From NCBI RefSeq assembly GCF_055900595.2, contig NZ_CM148325.1: a stretch of DNA of 64,000 bases. One strand, written 5' to 3'. Below, piece after piece: positions 6,372 to 57,563 of the stretch. The position numbers were made by a program, and so were the translations under genes. Each line of letters opens with the position of its first letter. The first letter of the stretch is position 1. The notes under the pieces were generated by a model that ran no database searches, was not told the origin of the DNA, and saw only the letters and a list, made by a program, of their open reading frames with translations.

Positions 6372-7085
6372 TGCACAGAAAACCCCCAGCTAGGCTGGGG
6401 GTTCCGGAAAGCTTTCAGCTTTGAGCCAGTTATTAAAACCCCTTTTGATTTGTTAAAACACCTTGCGGTCTGGCAACTGCAAGTGTCAAACAAGAAATCA
6501 AAAGGGGGTCCCAATGGGGGACGAAAAGAGCTTAGCGCACACCCGCTGGAACTGTAAATATCACATAGTTTTTGCGCCGAAATACCGAAGACTGGCGTTT
6601 TACGGAGAGAAGCGTAGGGCGATAGGCAGTATTTTGAGAAAGCTGTGTGAGTGGAAAAGCGTACGGATTCTGGAAGCAGAGTGCTGCGCAGATCATATCC
6701 ATATGCTTGTGGAAATCCCACCCAAAATGAGCGTATCCGGCTTTATGGGATATCTGAAAGGGAAAAGCAGTCTGATGCTTTACGAGCAGTTTGGGGATTT
6801 GAAATTCAAATACAGAAACAGGGAGTTCTGGTGCCGAGGGTACTATGTCGATACGGTGGGTAAGAACACGGCGAAGATACAGGACTACATAAAGCACCAG
6901 CTTGAAGAGGATAAAATGGGGGAGCAGTTATCGATTCCATATCCGGGCAGCCCGTTTACGGGCCGTAAGTAACGAAGTTGAATGCAAATGTCAGATCGTA
7001 TGCGCCTGTTAGGGCGCGGCTGGTAACAGAGCCTTACAGGCGCATTTGAAAAACCTCCGGCTATGCCGGAGGATATTTATTTTTA
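6372..7085 (+). mobile_element. IS200-like insertion sequence (IS200/IS605 family); boundaries approximate
   Basis: About 710 bp unit holding a 152-aa Y1-transposase ORF, a perfect palindrome CCCCCAGCTAGGCTGGGGG at the left end and stem-loops at the right end; no inverted terminal repeats, as expected for IS200. Confidence 0.72.
6514..6972 (+). CDS. tnpA: IS200 transposase TnpA (HUH/Y1 type)
   Basis: MGDEKSLAHTRWNCKYHIVFAPKYRR...HIHMLVEIPPKMSVSGFMGYLKGKSS...; 152 aa from the internal Met of ORF 6463..6972. Confidence 0.9.
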   Translation: MGDEKSLAHTRWNCKYHIVFAPKYRRLAFYGEKRRAIGSILRKLCEWKSVRILEAECCADHIHMLVEIPPKMSVSGFMGYLKGKSSLMLYEQFGDLKFKYRNREFWCRGYYVDTVGKNTAKIQDYIKHQLEEDKMGEQLSIPYPGSPFTGRK

Positions 7086-30576: not shown

Positions 30577-31154
30577 GAGTTCCCCACGTCAGCGGGGATA
30601 AACCTTGCTCGATGCGGGCGTTAACTTTTTTATAGGCGAGTTCCCCGCGCCAGCGGGGATAAACCGCGTAATTTTGTACGCTCAACACGTAACTAAATGA
30701 GTTCCCCGCGCCAGCGGGGATAAACCGATCACCAGTGCGGATTGTTCAAATAGTGCCTGGAGTTCCCCGCGCCAGCGGGGATAAACCGAGAGCTATATCG
30801 CAGCGTTTAACTGGATGACAGAGTTCCCCGCGCCAGCGGGGATAAACCGGTGTTTTTTGCCATCTGAACTGTGGCACGCCGGAGTTCCCCGCGCCAGCGG
30901 GGATAAACCGTCTATAATGTCTCATCCGGGGTTAATTCAATCGAGTTCCCCGCGCCAGCGGGGATAAACCGATCAGCCCCACATCCGGTTTTGCCAGCAA
31001 CGTGAGTTCCCCGCGCCAGCGGGGATAAACCGTAAGATGATCTCACGGAATTGAACGAACTACGGAGTTCCCCGCGCTAGCGGGGATAAACCGGACACAG
31101 AGCGCCGCTATAGCGCCTATGCCAAGAGTTCCCCGCACCAGCGGGAATAAACCA
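30577..31154 (+). CRISPR. Type I-E CRISPR array (CRISPR 2.3-like): 10 repeats, 9 spacers of 32 nt
   Basis: 29-nt repeat GAGTTCCCCGCGCCAGCGGGGATAAACCG at 61-bp period starting 30577, 30638, ... 31126; first and last repeats degenerate; AT-rich leader-like region 30240..30576. Confidence 0.95.
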
Positions 31155-31608: not shown

Positions 31609-31746
31609 ATATTCCTTGTAAAAACAGGGATAAACCGAACTAGTTAAAGTTTTTATTATGTTCCCTGCATCAGCGGGGATAAACCGGACTTGTTATCATT
31701 TTTTAAGTTGTCGAACTTATGTTCCCCGCGCCAGCGGGGATAACCA
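31609..31746 (+). CRISPR. Degenerate mini-array (CRISPR 2.2-like remnant), about 3 repeats
   Basis: Repeats ATGTTCCCTGCATCAGCGGGGATAAACCG (31658) and ATGTTCCCCGCGCCAGCGGGGATAACC (31719) plus a partial upstream copy ending ...CAGGGATAAACCG (31637). Confidence 0.7.
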
Positions 31747-31792
31747 TTCAGGTATGTTCAGGCCGGGCAGTTTCCCGCCCGGCCTTCCTCAC

Positions 31793-47855: not shown

Positions 47856-48008
47856 ATGCTGACAAAATATGCCCTTGTGGCAATCATCGTACTGTGTTGT
47901 ACAGTACTGGGATTCACGCTGATGGTAGGCGACTCGTTGTGTGAGTTGAGTATCAGAGAACGTGGTATGGAGTTTAAGGCAGTTCTCGCTTACGAATCGA
48001 AGAAGTAG
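47856..48008 (+). CDS. Hok/Gef-family type I toxin peptide (hokX-like)
   Basis: 50 aa [50 protein letters not shown]: one TM helix plus Hok C-terminal signature; GGGAGG RBS at 47844; GC hairpin ACGCGGGGGTAAAACCCCGCGT follows the stop. Confidence 0.7.
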
Positions 48009-48246: not shown

Positions 48247-50904
48247 GTGACTTTCTTTGATTTCTGGGGAAAAACCCGACGTGGCGAGAAAGAGGGTGGC
48301 GACGATTATCACCTTCTTTGCTGGCATTCGCTGGATGTAGCCGCGATAGGCTATTTAATGGTCAAAAACAACTGTTTCGGGCTGGCTGACTATTTTCGTC
48401 AATTAGGTTTCGCTGACACGGATCAGGCAGCACAATTTTTCGCCTGGTTGTTGTGCTGGCACGATACTGGAAAATTTGCCCGCTCATTTCAGCAACTTTA
48501 CCTGCACCCACAACTCAAGGTTCCGGAAGGCGCAAGAAAGAATTACGAAAAGATCTCTCATTCAACGCTGGGTTACTGGTTGTGGCATCATTATTTAATT
48601 GAATGTGAAGAGTTGCTTCCTTCATCTTCACTCTCTTTGCGCAAACTTAAACGGGTAATAGATATGTGGATGCCCGTGACGACCGGGCATCATGGTCGGC
48701 CTCCTGACCGTATCGATGAACTGGACAACTTTCTGCCTGAAGACAAAGCTGCCGCACGAGATTTTCTCCTTGCAATCAAGTCACTGTTTCCGCTCATAGA
48801 GATCCCCACATTCTGGGATGATGACGAGGGCGTTGAACTTATAAAACATCTTTCCTGGTATATATCTGCAACCGTCGTACTCGCAGACTGGACGGGATCG
48901 TCAACGCGGTTTTTTCCACGCGTCGCACATGTAATGGATATTAAAGATTACTGGCAGAATGCTTTAGCTCAGGCTCAAAACGCATTAACCGTCTTTCCTC
49001 CAAAAGCAGAAACCGCACCTTTCACTGGAATTAACACGCTGTTTCCTTTTATTGAGAACCCAACACCGTTACAGCAAAAGGTGCTGGATCTGGATATCAG
49101 CCAGCCAGAACCGCAGTTGTTTATTCTGGAAGATGTGACTGGCGCAGGTAAAACAGAAGCGGCGCTTATCCTGGCGCACAGGTTGATGTCTGCGGGTAAC
49201 GCTCAGGGGCTGTTTTTTGGTTTGCCGACAATGGCAACGGCCAATGCCATGTACGATAGGCTGGTCAAAACCTGGCTTGCTTTCTATTCGCCGGAATCCC
49301 GCCCCAGCCTGGTGCTGGCACACAGCGCTCGTTCGCTAATGGATCGCTTTAACGCATCGCTGTGGTCTGGTGATTTTGTGGGGTCAGAAGAACCGGATGA
49401 ACAAGCGTTCAGTCAGGGATGTGCGGCCTGGTTTGCTGGCAGTAACAAGAAGGCGTTGCTGGCTGAAATTGGCGTCGGCACGCTGGATCAGGCGATGATG
49501 GCGGTGATGCCGTTCAAACATAATAATCTGCGGCTTCTGGGGCTGAGTAACAAAATCCTGCTAGCCGATGAGATCCACGCCTGTGACGCTTATATGTCGT
49601 GCATTCTTGAAGGGCTGATCGAGCGGCAGGCGCGTGGCGGAAACAGCGTTATTTTGCTTTCTGCTACGTTGTCTCAACAGCAGCGTGACAAACTCGTCGC
49701 CGCCTTTGCGCGTGGTGCAGAGGGCCAGCAAGAAGCTCCGTTGCTGGAAAAAGATGATTATCCCTGGCTGACGCATGTCACGAAATCCGATGTGCATTCG
49801 CACCGGGTAGCGACGCGCAAAGACGTTGAGCGCAGCGTGAGTGTGGGTTGGCTTCATAGCGAACAAGAGTGTATTGCGCGTATCGAATCGGCGGTAAGTC
49901 AGGGGAAATGCATCGCCTGGATTCGGAATTCTGTCGATGACGCCATCCAGGTTCATCGTCAGCTGCTTGCCCGCGGCGTCATTCCTGCTTCCAGCCTTTC
50001 ACTTTTTCATAGCCGCTTTGCTTTTAGCGATCGCCAGCGAATTGAAACGGAGACGCTGGCACGCTTTGGTAAAGAAGACTGTTCACAGCGTGCCGGAAAA
50101 GTCCTCATTTGTACTCAGGTCCTGGAGCAGAGCGTCGACTGCGACCTGGACGAAATGATTTCCGACCTTGCCCCTGTTGATTTACTGATCCAGCGAGCAG
50201 GGCGATTACAGCGACATATCCGCGATATTAATGGTCAGTTAAAGCGTGACGGTAAAGACGAGCGTCACCCTCCTGTATTGCTGATTCTGGCCCCCGTCTG
50301 GGACGACTCTCCGGGTGAAGAATGGTTTGCCAGTGCCATGCGTAACAGTGCATTTGTCTATCCCGATCATGGGCGAATCTGGTTGACGCAGCGTGTGCTG
50401 CGTGAACAAGGCGCGATTCAGATGCCACACTCAGCCCGGCTTCTGATTGAATCAGTCTACGGTGAGGACGTGGTAATGCCGGAAGGGTTTGCCCGCAGCG
50501 AGCAGGAGCAAGTGGGCAAATACTACTGCGATCGTTCAATGGCTAATAAGTTTGTGCTGAACTTCAGGCCCGGCTATGCCGCCAATATCAACGATTACCT
50601 TCCGGAAAAACTGTCGACACGTCTGGCTGAGGAGTCTGTTTCCTTGTGGTTGGCTACCTGTATTGACGGTGTGGTGAAGCCTTATGCCACTGGCGCTCAC
50701 GCATGGGAAATGAGCGTTGTCAGAGCGCGCCAAAGCTGGTGGAAAAAACATCGGGATGAGTTTTCTTTACTGGAAGGGGATGCGTTCAGGCAGTGGTGCG
50801 TTGAACAGCGGCAAGATCCGGAGATGGTAAATGTGATTTTAGTTACCGATGACGAAAGTTGCGGGTATTCGGCTACGGAGGGATTGATTGGCAAGGTTGG
50901 TTGA
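48247..50904 (+). CDS. cas3: Cas3 HD-nuclease/helicase (type I-E)
   Basis: 885-aa ORF (GTG start) with HD motifs, Walker A TGAGKTEAAL and DEIH box. Confidence 0.9.
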   Translation: MTFFDFWGKTRRGEKEGGDDYHLLCWHSLDVAAIGYLMVKNNCFGLADYFRQLGFADTDQAAQFFAWLLCWHDTGKFARSFQQLYLHPQLKVPEGARKNYEKISHSTLGYWLWHHYLIECEELLPSSSLSLRKLKRVIDMWMPVTTGHHGRPPDRIDELDNFLPEDKAAARDFLLAIKSLFPLIEIPTFWDDDEGVELIKHLSWYISATVVLADWTGSSTRFFPRVAHVMDIKDYWQNALAQAQNALTVFPPKAETAPFTGINTLFPFIENPTPLQQKVLDLDISQPEPQLFILEDVTGAGKTEAALILAHRLMSAGNAQGLFFGLPTMATANAMYDRLVKTWLAFYSPESRPSLVLAHSARSLMDRFNASLWSGDFVGSEEPDEQAFSQGCAAWFAGSNKKALLAEIGVGTLDQAMMAVMPFKHNNLRLLGLSNKILLADEIHACDAYMSCILEGLIERQARGGNSVILLSATLSQQQRDKLVAAFARGAEGQQEAPLLEKDDYPWLTHVTKSDVHSHRVATRKDVERSVSVGWLHSEQECIARIESAVSQGKCIAWIRNSVDDAIQVHRQLLARGVIPASSLSLFHSRFAFSDRQRIETETLARFGKEDCSQRAGKVLICTQVLEQSVDCDLDEMISDLAPVDLLIQRAGRLQRHIRDINGQLKRDGKDERHPPVLLILAPVWDDSPGEEWFASAMRNSAFVYPDHGRIWLTQRVLREQGAIQMPHSARLLIESVYGEDVVMPEGFARSEQEQVGKYYCDRSMANKFVLNFRPGYAANINDYLPEKLSTRLAEESVSLWLATCIDGVVKPYATGAHAWEMSVVRARQSWWKKHRDEFSLLEGDAFRQWCVEQRQDPEMVNVILVTDDESCGYSATEGLIGKVG

Positions 50905-50995: not shown

Positions 50996-52564
50996 ATGCG
51001 TATGAACTCGTTTTCACTTCTGACAACCCCGTGGTTGCCCGTTCGTTATAAAGACGGAACGACAGGCAAACTGGCGCCAGTCGATCTGGCGGATGAAAAT
51101 GTTGTCGATATCGCTGCGCCGCGGGCAGATCTCCAGGGGGCGGCATGGCAGTTTTTGCTGGGACTACTACAAACCAGCTTCGCGCCCAAAAATCACGGTC
51201 GTTGGGATGATATCTGGGAAGACGGGCTGGAGGTTGAAAAGCTACGGGAAGCATTGCTGTCTTTAGAACACGTTTTCCAGTTTGGCCCAGATTCCCCTTC
51301 ATTTATGCAGGATTTCGAGGCGCTTACGGGAGATAAAGTTCCGGTAGCTTCATTACTGCCTGAAATTCCCGGCTCTCAAACGACGAAGTTTAATAAAGAC
51401 CACTTTATCAAGCGTGGTGTAACGGAACACCTGTGCCCCCATTGCTTAGCATTGGCCTTGTTCTCTTTACAGTTGAATGCACCAGCGGGCGGCAAAGGCT
51501 ATCGCACCGGTTTGCGCGGCGGTGGGCCGATGACGACGCTGATTGAATTGCAGGAATATCAGGGCAATCAACAAACTCCCTTGTGGCGCAAACTGTGGCT
51601 CAACGTGATGCCGCAGGATGAATCTGACTTACCGCTACCCAAAAAATTTGACGATCTGGTTTTCCCCTGGCTTGGCCCGACGCGTACCAGTGAACTGGCC
51701 GGTGCGGTGGTAACTGATGATCAGGTCAACAAACTCCAGGCGTACTGGGGAATGCCTCGGCGCTTACGTGTTGATTTTAATACCACGACAGTCGGCAACT
51801 GCGATATTTGCGGTGAGCAGAGCGACGCGCTCCTGAGCCTGATGACGACCAAAAATTACGGTGCGAATTATGCCATGTGGCAGCATCCCTTAACGCCCTA
51901 CCGTGTACCACTTAAAGAGGGCGGCGAGCTTTACTCGGTCAAGCCACAACCGGGCGGTTTAATCTGGCGCGACTGGTTAGGTCTTATCGAAACGGGTAAG
52001 TCAGAAAACAATACGGAATTTCCCGCGCTGGTGGTGAAACTCTTTAATGCCAGCAGTCTGAAACAGGCAAAAGTGGGCCTGTGGGGATTTGGCTATGATT
52101 TCGACAACATGAAAGCGCGCTGTTGGTACGAACACCATTTCCCGCTACTGCTCAATAAAAAAGAAGGCCAGATACCAAAGCTGCGGCTGGCTGCGCAAAC
52201 GGCTTCACGGATTCTAAGTCTGTTACGGAGTGCATTGAAAGAAGCATGGTTCTCCGATCCAAAAGGTGCACGGGGTGATTTCAGTTTTGTGGATATCGAC
52301 TTCTGGAACAAAACTCAGCATCGCTTCCTGAGGTTAGTGCGTCAAATTGAAGAAGGTCAGGAGCCGGATGAATTACTCAGCAAATGGCAAAAGGAAATGT
52401 GGTTATTCGCGCGTCAGGATTTTGACGAGCGGGTATTCACTAATCCTTATGAGCCCGTTGATTTGAAACGCGTCATGACCGCGCGCAAGAAATATTTTAC
52501 AACATCGGCGGAGAAGCAAAGTGCTAAAGCCGCCAGGGAGAAAAAGCAGGAGGCTGCTGAATGA
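50996..52564 (+). CDS. casA: Cascade large subunit Cse1/CasA
   Basis: 522-aa ORF in the cas3-cse1-cse2-cas7-cas5-cas6e order; start may be the Met at 51002. Confidence 0.85.
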   Translation: MRMNSFSLLTTPWLPVRYKDGTTGKLAPVDLADENVVDIAAPRADLQGAAWQFLLGLLQTSFAPKNHGRWDDIWEDGLEVEKLREALLSLEHVFQFGPDSPSFMQDFEALTGDKVPVASLLPEIPGSQTTKFNKDHFIKRGVTEHLCPHCLALALFSLQLNAPAGGKGYRTGLRGGGPMTTLIELQEYQGNQQTPLWRKLWLNVMPQDESDLPLPKKFDDLVFPWLGPTRTSELAGAVVTDDQVNKLQAYWGMPRRLRVDFNTTTVGNCDICGEQSDALLSLMTTKNYGANYAMWQHPLTPYRVPLKEGGELYSVKPQPGGLIWRDWLGLIETGKSENNTEFPALVVKLFNASSLKQAKVGLWGFGYDFDNMKARCWYEHHFPLLLNKKEGQIPKLRLAAQTASRILSLLRSALKEAWFSDPKGARGDFSFVDIDFWNKTQHRFLRLVRQIEEGQEPDELLSKWQKEMWLFARQDFDERVFTNPYEPVDLKRVMTARKKYFTTSAEKQSAKAAREKKQEAAE

Positions 52565-53097
52565 GTATTGTAAAAGAGGAGCACAAAGCCACGCTGCGCA
52601 AATGGCACGAGGAATTGCAGGAAAAACGCGGCAATCGTGCCAGTCTGCGGCGTAGTACGACGGTTAATGATGTTTGTTTGTCAGAAGGGTTTCGTTCTCT
52701 GCTGATGCAGACCCACACGTTGTGGAAAGTTGAAGCGCAAGAGTGGCGTTTTACCGCACTGGCACTGGTCGCTGCAGTTAGCGCCAATGTAAAAGCCATT
52801 GATGAACGGCAGCCTTTTGCCGCGCAGCTGGCGGCAGTAATGTCAGAAGGGCGGTTTTCGCGCCTGTCGGCAGTAAAAACGCCGGATGATTTACTGCGCC
52901 AGTTACGTCGCGCGGTCAAATTATTAAACGGTTCCGTCAATCTTATCTCTTTGGCAGACGATATTTTCCGCTGGTGCCAGGAGAGTGACGACCTGCTCAA
53001 CCATCACCGCCGTCAGCAGCGGCCAACAGAATTTATCCGTATCCGCTGGGCGCTGGAATATTACAAGGCTGGCGACGCCGATAACGAACAAAATTAA
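52561..53097 (+). CDS. casB: Cascade small subunit Cse2/CasB
   Basis: 178-aa ORF overlapping the casA stop. Confidence 0.85.
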   Translation: MSIVKEEHKATLRKWHEELQEKRGNRASLRRSTTVNDVCLSEGFRSLLMQTHTLWKVEAQEWRFTALALVAAVSANVKAIDERQPFAAQLAAVMSEGRFSRLSAVKTPDDLLRQLRRAVKLLNGSVNLISLADDIFRWCQESDDLLNHHRRQQRPTEFIRIRWALEYYKAGDADNEQN

Positions 53098-54177: not shown

Positions 54178-54924
54178 ATGAGCCAATATCTGATTTTTCA
54201 GCTTCATGGGCCAATGGCATCCTGGGGCGTTGATGCACCCGGTGAGGTGCGTCATACCCATGAACTGCCTTCGCGTTCAGCATTGCTGGGGCTGCTGGCT
54301 GCCGGGTTAGGGATACGGCGTGATGACACCGAATGCTTAAACGCGTTTAATCGCCACTATTCACTGGTGGTTTGCGCCAGCCGTAACCCGCGCTGGGCAC
54401 GGGATTATCACACGGTCCAGATGCCAAAAGAGGTGCGTAAAGCGCGTTATTTCAGCCGTCGCGAAGAGTTGAGCGACCCTGATCTTCTAAGCGCGATTAT
54501 CTCCCGGCGCGACTACTACACCGATGCCTGGTGGATGGTGGCCGTGGCAACAACAGCTGATGCGCCTTACAGCCTCGAACAGTTGCAGGAAGGTTTACGC
54601 CATCCGGTTTTTCCGCTTTATCTGGGGCGAAAAAGCCATCCGCTGGCGTTACCCCTTGCGCCGTTACTGCTCGAAGGCAACGCGTCTGATGCCTTACGTA
54701 CCGCATATCAACAGTATCAGGATCGTTTCCACGAACTAAAAGTCTCACTCCCGAAACTTCAGGATGAATGCTGGTGGGAAGGGGAGCACGATGGCCTGGT
54801 CGCGAGCAAAATATTACGCCGCCGGGATGTTCCTTTAAATCGTCAGCAGTGGCTGTTTGGGGAACGCACCGTCAATCAGGGGCCGTGGCTCAGCAAGGAG
54901 GAACCATGTACCTCTCAAGAATAA
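54178..54924 (+). CDS. casD: Cascade Cas5e/CasD
   Basis: 248-aa ORF MSQYLIFQLHGPMASWG... Confidence 0.85.
   Translation: MSQYLIFQLHGPMASWGVDAPGEVRHTHELPSRSALLGLLAAGLGIRRDDTECLNAFNRHYSLVVCASRNPRWARDYHTVQMPKEVRKARYFSRREELSDPDLLSAIISRRDYYTDAWWMVAVATTADAPYSLEQLQEGLRHPVFPLYLGRKSHPLALPLAPLLLEGNASDALRTAYQQYQDRFHELKVSLPKLQDECWWEGEHDGLVASKILRRRDVPLNRQQWLFGERTVNQGPWLSKEEPCTSQE

Positions 54925-55552: not shown

Positions 55553-55556
<4 letters not shown>
54906..55556 (+). CDS. casE: CRISPR repeat endoribonuclease Cas6e/CasE
   Basis: 216-aa product from MYLSRITLHTGQLSP... ending ...GKSRAFGCGLMLIKP; the longer ORF 54768..55556 is a 5' extension. Confidence 0.85.
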
Positions 55557-56766
<1,210 letters not shown>

Positions 56767-56862
56767 GTTACCCGTTCTTTAAAAATAAGGAAATGTTTGA
56801 ATTTAGTTGGTAGATTGTTGATGTGGAATAAAATTGTTTAAAAACAGATACGTATGCTTAGT
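56767..56862 (+). promoter_or_regulatory. CRISPR I leader
   Basis: AT-rich 96 bp between cas2 stop and first repeat. Confidence 0.75.
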
Positions 56863-57563
56863 GTGTTCCCCGCGCTAGCGGGGATAAACCGGTAATAAAT
56901 TCTTTGTGCGCGAAGAAATGAAGGTGTTCCCCGCGCTAGCGGGGATAAACCACGTGGCAACAATATTCCGCTGCTTTAACGCAAGTGTTCCCCGCGCTAG
57001 CGGGGATAAACCGGCGGCGATCATCTTTGACGCCGACCTGTTTCGGTGTTCCCCGCGCTAGCGGGGATAAACCGCGCTACCACAGGTCGCTACCGCATGG
57101 GCTTCAGTGTTCCCCGCGCTAGCGGGGATAAACCGCGGTCATATTGCGCCTGCACAGACTCACTGCGGTGTTCCCCGCGCTAGCGGGGATAAACCGGGGC
57201 AGGGAAATCACGGGCACGGTGACGATATGTGTTCCCCGCGCTAGCGGGGATAAACCGCCAAAACCATGACGTTCTCACTATCGGATGTGGTGTTCCCCGC
57301 GCTAGCGGGGATAAACCGTGGCCACCGGCAAAGAAAAAACGGAGTTCTGGCGTGTTCCCCGCGCCAGCGGGGATAAACCGGAAACTGTACTTGATGCGCT
57401 GAAAGCGATGGGGTGTTCCCCGCGCCAGCGGGGATAAACCGATGGCCCAGGGATTTGTTCAGTCCAGCGTGCCGTGTTCCCCGCGCCAGCGGGGATAAAC
57501 CGCTCTCGGTTCTGGGGTACTGTTACCCATAACTGAGCTCCCCCGCGTCAGCGGGGAACTCCC
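56863..57563 (+). CRISPR. Type I-E CRISPR array (CRISPR I): 12 repeats, 11 spacers
   Basis: 29-nt repeat GTGTTCCCCGCGC(T/C)AGCGGGGATAAACCG at 61-bp period (one 33-nt spacer); terminal repeat degenerate (GAGCTCCCCCGCGTCAGCGGGGAACTCCC). Confidence 0.96.

Follow-up and report, generated by a model that had tools for sequence, protein, structure and literature searches.

Why do the eight leader-proximal repeats of the CRISPR array beside iap carry a T at a position where the three leader-distal repeats carry a C, and what does the edge between these two blocks record? The array lies in a 64,000-nucleotide stretch of DNA (hereafter the window; contig NZ_CM148325.1, assembly GCF_055900595.2). A preliminary description of this sequence had proposed that the leader-proximal repeat mutated once and was copied into each newer repeat. 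The window belongs to Escherichia coli, as its iap-cysD-cysN flank is 100% identical to that of eight RefSeq genomes. The genes follow the order cysI, cysH, hok, cas3, cse1, cse2, cas7, cas5, cas6e, cas1, cas2, leader, array, and iap on the opposite strand. The relevant features upstream of the array are:

47856-48008: hok, between cysH and cas3
48247..50904, + strand: cas3, 885 aa, a full-length ORF with NCBIfam cas3_core and cas3_HD above cutoffs, 29% identical to K-12 Cas3
50996..52564, + strand: cse1/casA, 522 aa, TIGR02547 at 602 bits, 23% identical to K-12 CasA
52561..53097, + strand: cse2/casB, 178 aa, TIGR02548 at 102 bits
53112..54167, + strand: cas7e/casC, 351 aa, TIGR01869 at 443 bits, annotated as cas7e in sister genomes
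54178..54924, + strand: cas5e/casD, 248 aa, TIGR01868 at 160 bits
54906..55556, + strand: cas6e/casE, 216 aa, the pre-crRNA endonuclease, TIGR01907 at 276 bits, 26% identical to K-12 CasE
55553..56476, + strand: cas1e, 307 aa, TIGR03638 at 382 bits, 84% identical to K-12 Cas1
56473..56766, + strand: cas2e, 97 aa, TIGR01873 at 133 bits, 86% identical to K-12 Cas2
56767..56862, + strand: leader of the leader-A / L1 type, 96 nt, from the cas2 stop (56766) to repeat 1

All eight cas genes are full length, and seven of them pass type I-E-specific NCBIfam models. For the remaining one, cas3, the generic models of the Cas3 helicase and HD-nuclease domains score above their cutoffs, but the full-length Cas3 model does not. 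Identity to the K-12 counterparts is only 23-35% for Cas3 and the five Cascade proteins. Because these effectors have diverged from K-12 while Cas1 and Cas2 are close to it, which matches the variant described in PMC3903273 and PMC3737337, we assign the operon to cas-E1 (also named cas-EO). This is the primary variant of E. coli, the K-12 type being a minority replacement (PMC3903273, PMC3737337). The leader has a G+C content of 0.28, compared with 0.50 for the whole window. It is identical at 96 of 96 positions to that of strain N96, whose repeats all carry C, and differs from the K-12 leader. A promoter scan of the leader returned one sigma-70-like site, at 56807-56834, which does not exceed chance. 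Judged by its sequence, the locus is thus the iap-cysH CRISPR2.1 (CRISPR-I) array of type I-E, with a cas-E1 / cas-EO operon and leader-A.

The array consists of 11 full 29-nt repeats spanning 56863-57502 and 11 spacers, followed by a degenerate twelfth repeat; a direct reading, a repeat search, and an exact parse agree on this layout. The full repeats begin at 56863, 56924, 56985, 57046, 57107, 57168, 57229, 57290, 57352, 57413, and 57474, with a period of 61 nt and a single step of 62 nt. All 11 show zero to two mismatches to the consensus G[A/T]GTTCCCCGCGCCAGCGGGGATAAACCG (29 nt counted as 28+1). The spacers are all unique, and ten of them are 32 nt long; spacer 8 (57319-57351) has 33 nt. 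The sequence of repeats 1-8 is GTGTTCCCCGCGCTAGCGGGGATAAACCG, and that of repeats 9-11 includes GCGCCAGC, with C at position 14. The array can thus be divided as follows:

56863..57318, + strand: T-loop block, repeats 1-8 (GC-T-A connector) and spacers 1-7, also present in eight sister genomes
57352..57502, + strand: C-loop block, repeats 9-11 and spacers 9 and 10, delimited by the exact parse
57535..57563, + strand: degenerate terminal repeat, which in an alignment to the consensus shows a 1-nt insertion, substitutions, GTCA as connector, and divergence at the 3' end

The preliminary description had recognized this 11-spacer, iap-side type I-E array adjoining an intact cas operon, its T and C blocks, its 33-nt spacer, and its degenerate terminal repeat, and all of these were recovered here. 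It had placed the array at 56767-57563. The end of this span is correct; its first base is the start of the leader and not of the first repeat. Tandem Repeats Finder returned no rows for the array, as expected since the unique spacers hold the identity between units below its threshold. Likewise, no Rfam CRISPR-DR family matched at its gathering score between 56000 and 58000; this leaves the identity of the locus unaffected, as it rests on the array and cas features.

The variable base, repeat position 14, is the third base of the 4-nt connector GC[C/T]A, which is flanked by the 7-nt inverted repeats TCCCCGC and GCGGGGA. As the preliminary description had it, the stem is kept and the polymorphism is confined to the loop. 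The T and C repeats have the same predicted structure, a 7-bp stem from U5-A22 to C11-G16 closing the loop G-C-[U/C]-A, and the same fold energy of -15.2 kcal/mol. The predicted repeat hairpin has a z score of about -3.2 to -4.0, and a hairpin is still predicted in the degenerate terminal repeat. We can only infer that processing of the T repeat by Cas6e is unaffected, because the K-12 Cas6e behind this argument is just 26% identical to the enzyme encoded here. The eight T and three C repeats are perfectly sorted along the array, an order that has a chance of 1 in 165 given these numbers.

The same array, with the same T/C pattern, was found in eight independent RefSeq E. coli genomes from seven countries. 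Six of these sisters are human stool isolates (one each from Mali, Kenya, India, and Bangladesh, and two from the Gambia), one is a human isolate from Japan, and one was obtained from a dog in South Korea. The annotations of eight RefSeq genomes already list the array as CRISPR. A sequencing error behind the T/C difference, which the preliminary description had named as the finding that would overturn its reading, is excluded by the recurrence of the pattern in eight independent assemblies. The exact T repeat is moreover present in 53 of 5,426 complete E. coli genomes, a number that is a lower bound for GAGTT-type repeats, with a median of one copy and a maximum of ten, reached in the sisters. 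The chance that the difference is a sequencing or assembly artefact is therefore negligible.

The comparison of spacer order with related strains, which had been proposed as a check, also revealed how the array has changed. Five of the eight sisters have 12 spacers, namely those of the window plus one T-repeat/spacer unit, whose spacer we call spX (CGCTGATCTCAGGGATTAGATGTCCTGCCTGC), between spacers 6 and 7. Sister E200086 is devoid of spacers 4, 5, and 6 and of spX, and sisters 100117 and 100248 of spacers 3, 5, and 6 and of spX. Spacer 1 lies at the leader in all eight sisters and in the window, and the arrays differ by internal deletions only. From this comparison, the window strain would have lost exactly one unit, that of spX, at the following place:

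57229..57257, + strand: repeat 7, scar of the lost repeat-spacer unit, where five sisters keep spX and its T repeat

Because the window and its sisters all share spacer 1 and vary only by internal deletion, the array appears frozen: there would have been no gain since the common ancestor of the nine known isolates, the only change being the loss of internal units.

Targets were found for seven of the 11 window spacers, all in mobile elements, as well as for spX. In the list below, PAM refers to the trinucleotide immediately 5' of the protospacer, read on the spacer-sense strand:

56892..56923, + strand: spacer 1, the newest; 32/32, ATG PAM, DUF4942/methylase gene of phage Cyrano
56953..56984, + strand: spacer 2; 32/32, TGA in place of a PAM, DUF2586 gene in a P2-like prophage (strain N1420)
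57014..57045, + strand: spacer 3; 31/32, ATG PAM, DUF4054 gene of a prophage in STEC384/STEC379
57197..57228, + strand: spacer 6; 29/32, ATG PAM, Baseplate_J gene of viral contigs of about 32 kb
spX, kept by sisters: 32/32, ATG PAM, fused cytosine/adenine methylase gene of a viral contig
57319..57351, + strand: spacer 8, 33 nt; 33/33, ATG PAM, virB8 of 31-kb conjugative plasmids such as pGF47-C
spacer 9: 31/32, ATG PAM, prophage-like region of a Salmonella megaplasmid
57503..57534, + strand: spacer 11, the oldest anchor spacer; 28/32, AAG PAM, phage Cyrano

The eight protospacers, spX included, all lie in phages, prophages, or plasmids; six have an ATG PAM, one AAG, and one a slipped ATG. The chance that at least seven of eight protospacers carry AWG is 2e-10. 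The predominance of ATG matches the published data for leader-A arrays, in which 34 of 55 protospacers have CAT (= ATG) and 9 of 55 CTT (PMC3737337). Spacer 2 also matches three IMG/VR contigs at 32/32 or 30/32, and the same contigs hold the target of spacer 6, whose three mismatches all fall at third codon positions. For spacers 4, 5, 7, and 10, no target was detected in phages, plasmids, E. coli genomes, or scans of viral collections in which every sixth base was wildcarded. No self-target was found elsewhere in the 64-kb window at up to nine mismatches, and in the sister genomes spacers 2-11 and spX match only the array itself. The search against phage, plasmid, and self sequences with AAG or ATG PAMs, suggested in the preliminary description, thus bears out a real immune history: seven of the 11 spacers match mobile elements with the PAM of the family. 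As their matches indicate, they record encounters with SSU5-like phage-plasmids, with P2-like and other prophages, and with a small conjugative plasmid.

The protospacer of spacer 1 is also carried by 165 E. coli phage-plasmids of the pLF82/SSU5 type. Of the 5,426 complete E. coli genomes, 165 have plasmids with a perfect target, and the spacer is absent from all 165. More generally, no genome holds both spacer 1 and its target (173 records in 173 genomes), an absence that carries no weight because the expected overlap is only about 0.24. In plasmids pZ0117EC0005-1 and pAST85_1, the first 4 kb look IncF-like and are rich in ISs. We considered two possible cases of primed acquisition. Spacers 1 and 11 both target Cyrano, at sites 4.9 kb apart; priming of the former by the latter was rejected, as the targets are on opposite strands, ten spacers separate the two events, and the proximity has a p value of about 0.09. 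The targets of spacers 2 and 6 lie 5.8 kb apart in the same P2-like contigs and share one strand. This would be compatible with priming of spacer 2 by spacer 6, which we do not claim, the same-strand arrangement having p = 0.5.

Two units carry traces of their own capture. The first had been overlooked in the preliminary description:

56952..56952, + strand: aberrant terminal A of repeat 2 (ACCA instead of ACCG)

In the target of spacer 2, the base directly 5' of the protospacer is an A, itself preceded by ATG (context ATATGA|CGTGG). In type I-E systems, the PAM end of the prespacer supplies the last base of a new repeat (PMC10011333). Because this base of the target equals the last base of repeat 2, and because the last repeat base is PAM-derived, the terminal A is, on this match, readily explained as the footprint of a capture slipped by +1 off an ATG PAM and not as a later mutation. 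By analogy with K-12, spacer 2 would face TGA at the PAM position and would probably support poor interference. As for spacer 8, it matches its target over all 33 bases and was therefore captured long, not altered afterwards.

The older end of the array is shared with other strains. In 19 other E. coli genomes, the array ends with spacer 11. We confirmed this position in N96, Z226-1, and R32_14_1F, the three arrays inspected, where C-loop repeats surround the spacer. Spacer 10 is shared with the all-C array of strain 06-00048, where it has a different context, which would imply recombination or independent capture. Conversely, spacers 1-9 are private to the lineage. The edge between shared and private spacers therefore lies one unit further down the array than the T/C edge.

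These data can be assembled into a simple history of the locus. As established for the family, and presumably also here, the leader would drive transcription of the pre-crRNA, Cas6e would cut at the 3' base of each repeat hairpin, and the 61-nt crRNA would guide Cascade to AWG-flanked protospacers that Cas3 degrades. Integration of a new spacer would duplicate the leader-proximal repeat. Repeat 8 (T) and repeat 9 (C) would accordingly be the two daughters of the repeat split when spacer 8 was integrated. The C-to-T change would have occurred in the connector of the leader-proximal repeat, either during the gap-filling at the integration of spacer 8 or afterwards, as long as no newer spacer had followed. 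Every later unit would have inherited the T, that of spacer 7, that of the since-lost spX, and then those of spacers 6 to 1, the older units having kept C; along the way, spacer 2 would have brought in the terminal A of repeat 2, its protospacer having been taken one base away from the ATG PAM. As the daughter repeats 8 and 9 differ, the mutation falls after the integration of spacer 8 had begun and before the next one. The units added after it number seven in the window (spacers 1-7) and eight in the ancestor, which also had spX.

The copying of the first repeat, at the core of this scheme, has an experimental basis: a mutated first repeat was copied into new repeats, and adaptation required only the inverted repeats and not the connector (Goren 2016, PMC5039180). 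Within the repeat, conservation is described as lowest in the connector (Kunin 2007, cited in PMC5039180). The contiguous, leader-side T run fits this model as formulated in the preliminary description. However, the eight newest spacers that were said to have been added after the mutation wrongly included spacer 8, the true set being spacers 1-7 plus the lost spX. To speak of two acquisition phases was also an over-reading, as the T/C edge corresponds to one change in the state of the template, not to a pause. Deamination at a Dcm site was considered as the source of the C-to-T change and rejected, the context being CCAGC and not CCWGG. Altogether, we consider it probable that this is a CRISPR2.1 array in which a neutral C-to-T change in the connector was copied into all later units, and which has undergone only losses since the ancestor of the lineage.

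A block of variant repeats may also be acquired whole. Homologous recombination or module exchange could have brought the cas operon, the leader, and the T-type units together, with a crossover in the repeat between spacers 8 and 9. Precisely such an event was inferred for K-12-type arrays, in which leader-proximal variant repeats lie over a conserved trailer (Almendros 2014, PMC3903273). Two observations in other strains also speak for exchange: strain 2020CK-00188 has a wholly different array and a cas deletion within a flank 99.9% identical, and spacer 10, as seen above, is found in another lineage. A further case is R32_14_1F, where 23 C repeats are followed by eight T repeats, three C repeats, and the terminal spacer 11, and where the spacers apart from spacer 11 are unrelated to those of the window. 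To judge from its repeats, this pattern needs back-mutation or recombination between arrays, recombination being the easiest route; because its T block is interior, a block edge need not reflect mutation in situ. Against an import in the window, however, the leader is the very one of N96, an all-C strain bearing spacer 11, and the cas6e-cas2 segment is 99.3% identical to that of this strain, closer than the iap-cysD flank (98.35%). A donor is equally missing, since among the 5,426 E. coli genomes spacers 1-9 and spX occur in the lineage only. The only other species combining a leader-side T block with a similar leader is E. albertii, which shares no spacer and differs at 6 of the 96 leader bases. 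Because the leader and cas6e-cas2 are nearest to those of N96 and no donor with spacers 1-9 was found, the comparisons favour mutation in situ, and we regard an imported T block, possibly from a donor with an identical leader, as unlikely.

The absence of shared spacers and the six leader differences in E. albertii also mean that the T change arose more than once. Among representatives of other species and in other E. coli arrays, the T variant occurs either as an isolated internal repeat, as in E. coli SCPM-O-B-8794, C. youngae, S. diarizonae, and C. amalonaticus, or as a contiguous run, as in E. albertii NBRC 107761 (eight T then two C) and K. grimontii 06D021 (22 T). Runs are also present in the CRISPR II arrays of E. 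coli strain 48 and PapRG-06-5 (12 and 10 T, respectively, then C). Such runs in independent contexts, including CRISPR I of the present lineage and of R32_14_1F, would be expected if T were not neutral, that is, if the position were a mutational hot spot or if a favoured variant repeatedly took over the leader-proximal repeat. The neighbouring C of the connector is likewise often T (GTCA) in terminal repeats. Yet in E. coli the variant occurs in only the 53 genomes mentioned above, at a median of one copy, and recurrent neutral change is what the low conservation attributed to the connector predicts. We therefore find a non-neutral T in this array improbable. The broader proposition, that the C-to-T change is a recurrent hot spot or a mildly favoured variant in enterobacterial I-E arrays, where it would repeatedly take over the leader-proximal repeat (at least twice in E. 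coli CRISPR I, and also in CRISPR II, E. albertii, and K. grimontii), seems to us scarcely less doubtful. A hot spot could result from the deamination of unpaired cytosines in the single-stranded or extruded repeat. Should the proposition be true, T runs would serve as natural time stamps for the history of acquisition and recombination, independent of any phylogeny.

Returning to the neutral change copied in situ, the answer to the initial question is a modest one. The locus is a genuine and ordinary E. coli type I-E array, and its repeat polymorphism is a relative time stamp of a known kind. The literature already covers the locus itself, its cas variant and PAM preference, the origin of repeat ends from the PAM, and the duplication of the first repeat. 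The array has value as a clean natural example in which one SNP orders events, after spacer 8 and before the next integration, one odd repeat end betrays a slipped capture, and the comparison of sisters reveals loss alone. It also shows that a globally spread lineage carries the memory of SSU5-like phage-plasmids.

The closest known systems are the CRISPR2.1 arrays with leader-A and cas-E1 of the O157:H7 type (Diez-Villasenor 2013, PMC3737337; Almendros 2014, PMC3903273). The window shares with them the iap-cysH site and the hok gene between cysH and cas3. The GTGTT ("CRISPR-A") repeats, the leader, the 32-33-nt spacers, the degenerate end, and the PAM set, mostly ATG with some AAG, are also the same. 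It differs only by its private spacers 1-9 and by the T in the connector of the leader-side repeats. CRISPR I of K-12, with its cas-E2 / cas-EK operon and leader-T, occupies the same chromosomal site and has the same repeat core, hairpin, and 61-bp unit. However, the similarity of Cas1 and Cas2 (84-86% identity) does not extend to Cas3 and the Cascade proteins, found above to be highly divergent; the leaders differ, and the repeats begin with GAGTT in K-12 and with GTGTT in the window. Moreover, K-12 captures spacers at AAG only, whereas the cas-E1 variant uses AWG (PMC3737337).

In K-12-type strains, blocks of variant repeats have been attributed to the replacement of modules inside the CRISPR2.1 array (Almendros 2014, PMC3903273). 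These blocks and the one in the window are alike in forming a leader-side variant run over older repeats, and both are read as historical markers. They are distinguished by their surroundings: the K-12-type blocks travel with a foreign leader and foreign cas genes, whereas the leader and cas genes of the window are those of neighbouring all-C strains. Finally, the other T-run arrays show the same base change, also in contiguous repeats, and share no spacers with the window except the terminal spacer 11 of R32_14_1F. In that strain the T run is interior, whereas in the window it lies on the leader side.

The newest, leader-proximal spacer of the window CRISPR I array (sp1) and its oldest, terminal one (sp11) both have targets in SSU5-like phage-plasmids, matching at 32/32 positions (PAM ATG) and 28/32 positions (AAG), respectively. 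Phage Cyrano carries the two protospacers:

78748-78779, one protospacer
83610-83641, the other protospacer, on the opposite strand, with 4.9 kb between the two

A perfect sp1 target is present on plasmids of 165 of the 5,426 E. coli genomes, and the sp1 spacer itself is absent from all 165 target-bearing genomes. Two further spacers, sp2 (32/32 or 30/32, capture slipped one base off ATG) and sp6 (29/32, ATG PAM), share targets on P2-like viral contigs of ~32 kb (L037, and also L036 and L038). Their sites on L037 are as follows:

625-656, one target site
6440-6471, the other target site, on the same strand

This arrangement, with 5.8 kb between targets and an identical strand, is compatible with primed adaptation, in which the older, mismatched sp6 would have primed acquisition of the newer, slipped sp2; a shared strand is expected by chance in half of cases.

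Repeats 1-8 of the window array carry T at the third base of the connector GC[C/T]A (T-loop) and repeats 9-11 carry C (C-loop). E. coli R32_14_1F also has sp11 as its terminal anchor, the sole spacer common to the two arrays:

1597-3639 of L044, CRISPR I array of R32_14_1F, 34 repeats

There, 23 C-loop repeats precede an interior run of eight T-loop repeats, followed by three C-loop repeats. This order implies either that the first repeat mutated back or that arrays recombined with each other. T-loop repeats are also found at the CRISPR II locus, where strains 48 and PapRG-06-5 have 12 and 10, respectively, contiguous and on the leader side. The window contains:

30577-31154, CRISPR II, type I-E, ten GAGTT-type repeats
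31658-31747, two-repeat remnant, ~500 bp downstream of CRISPR II

The window CRISPR II has a single isolated T-loop repeat, at 31065, and both its end repeats are degenerate (the first, at 30577, with a GTCA connector and four mismatches; the last at 31126). The GTCA connector recurs at 57548, in the terminal repeat of CRISPR I; E. albertii, K. grimontii, and S. diarizonae have it too, in repeats that are terminal or lie at the trailer end. As the other connector cytosine is thus also often T, both unpaired connector cytosines seem prone to C-to-T change.

The iap-cysDN flank of E. coli 2020CK-00188 is 99.9% identical to that of the window. This strain has a truncated cas3, lacks the remaining cas genes, and carries an all-C array wholly unlike the window array. 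This combination is therefore a replacement or deletion of the CRISPR-cas locus inside a very close chromosomal background. Beside the cas operon, the window encodes a toxin:

47856-48008, hok, Hok/Gef toxin gene, 50 aa, between cysH and cas3

A hok gene at this position has been described in every strain apart from carriers of the K-12-type cas genes (Almendros 2014, PMC3903273).
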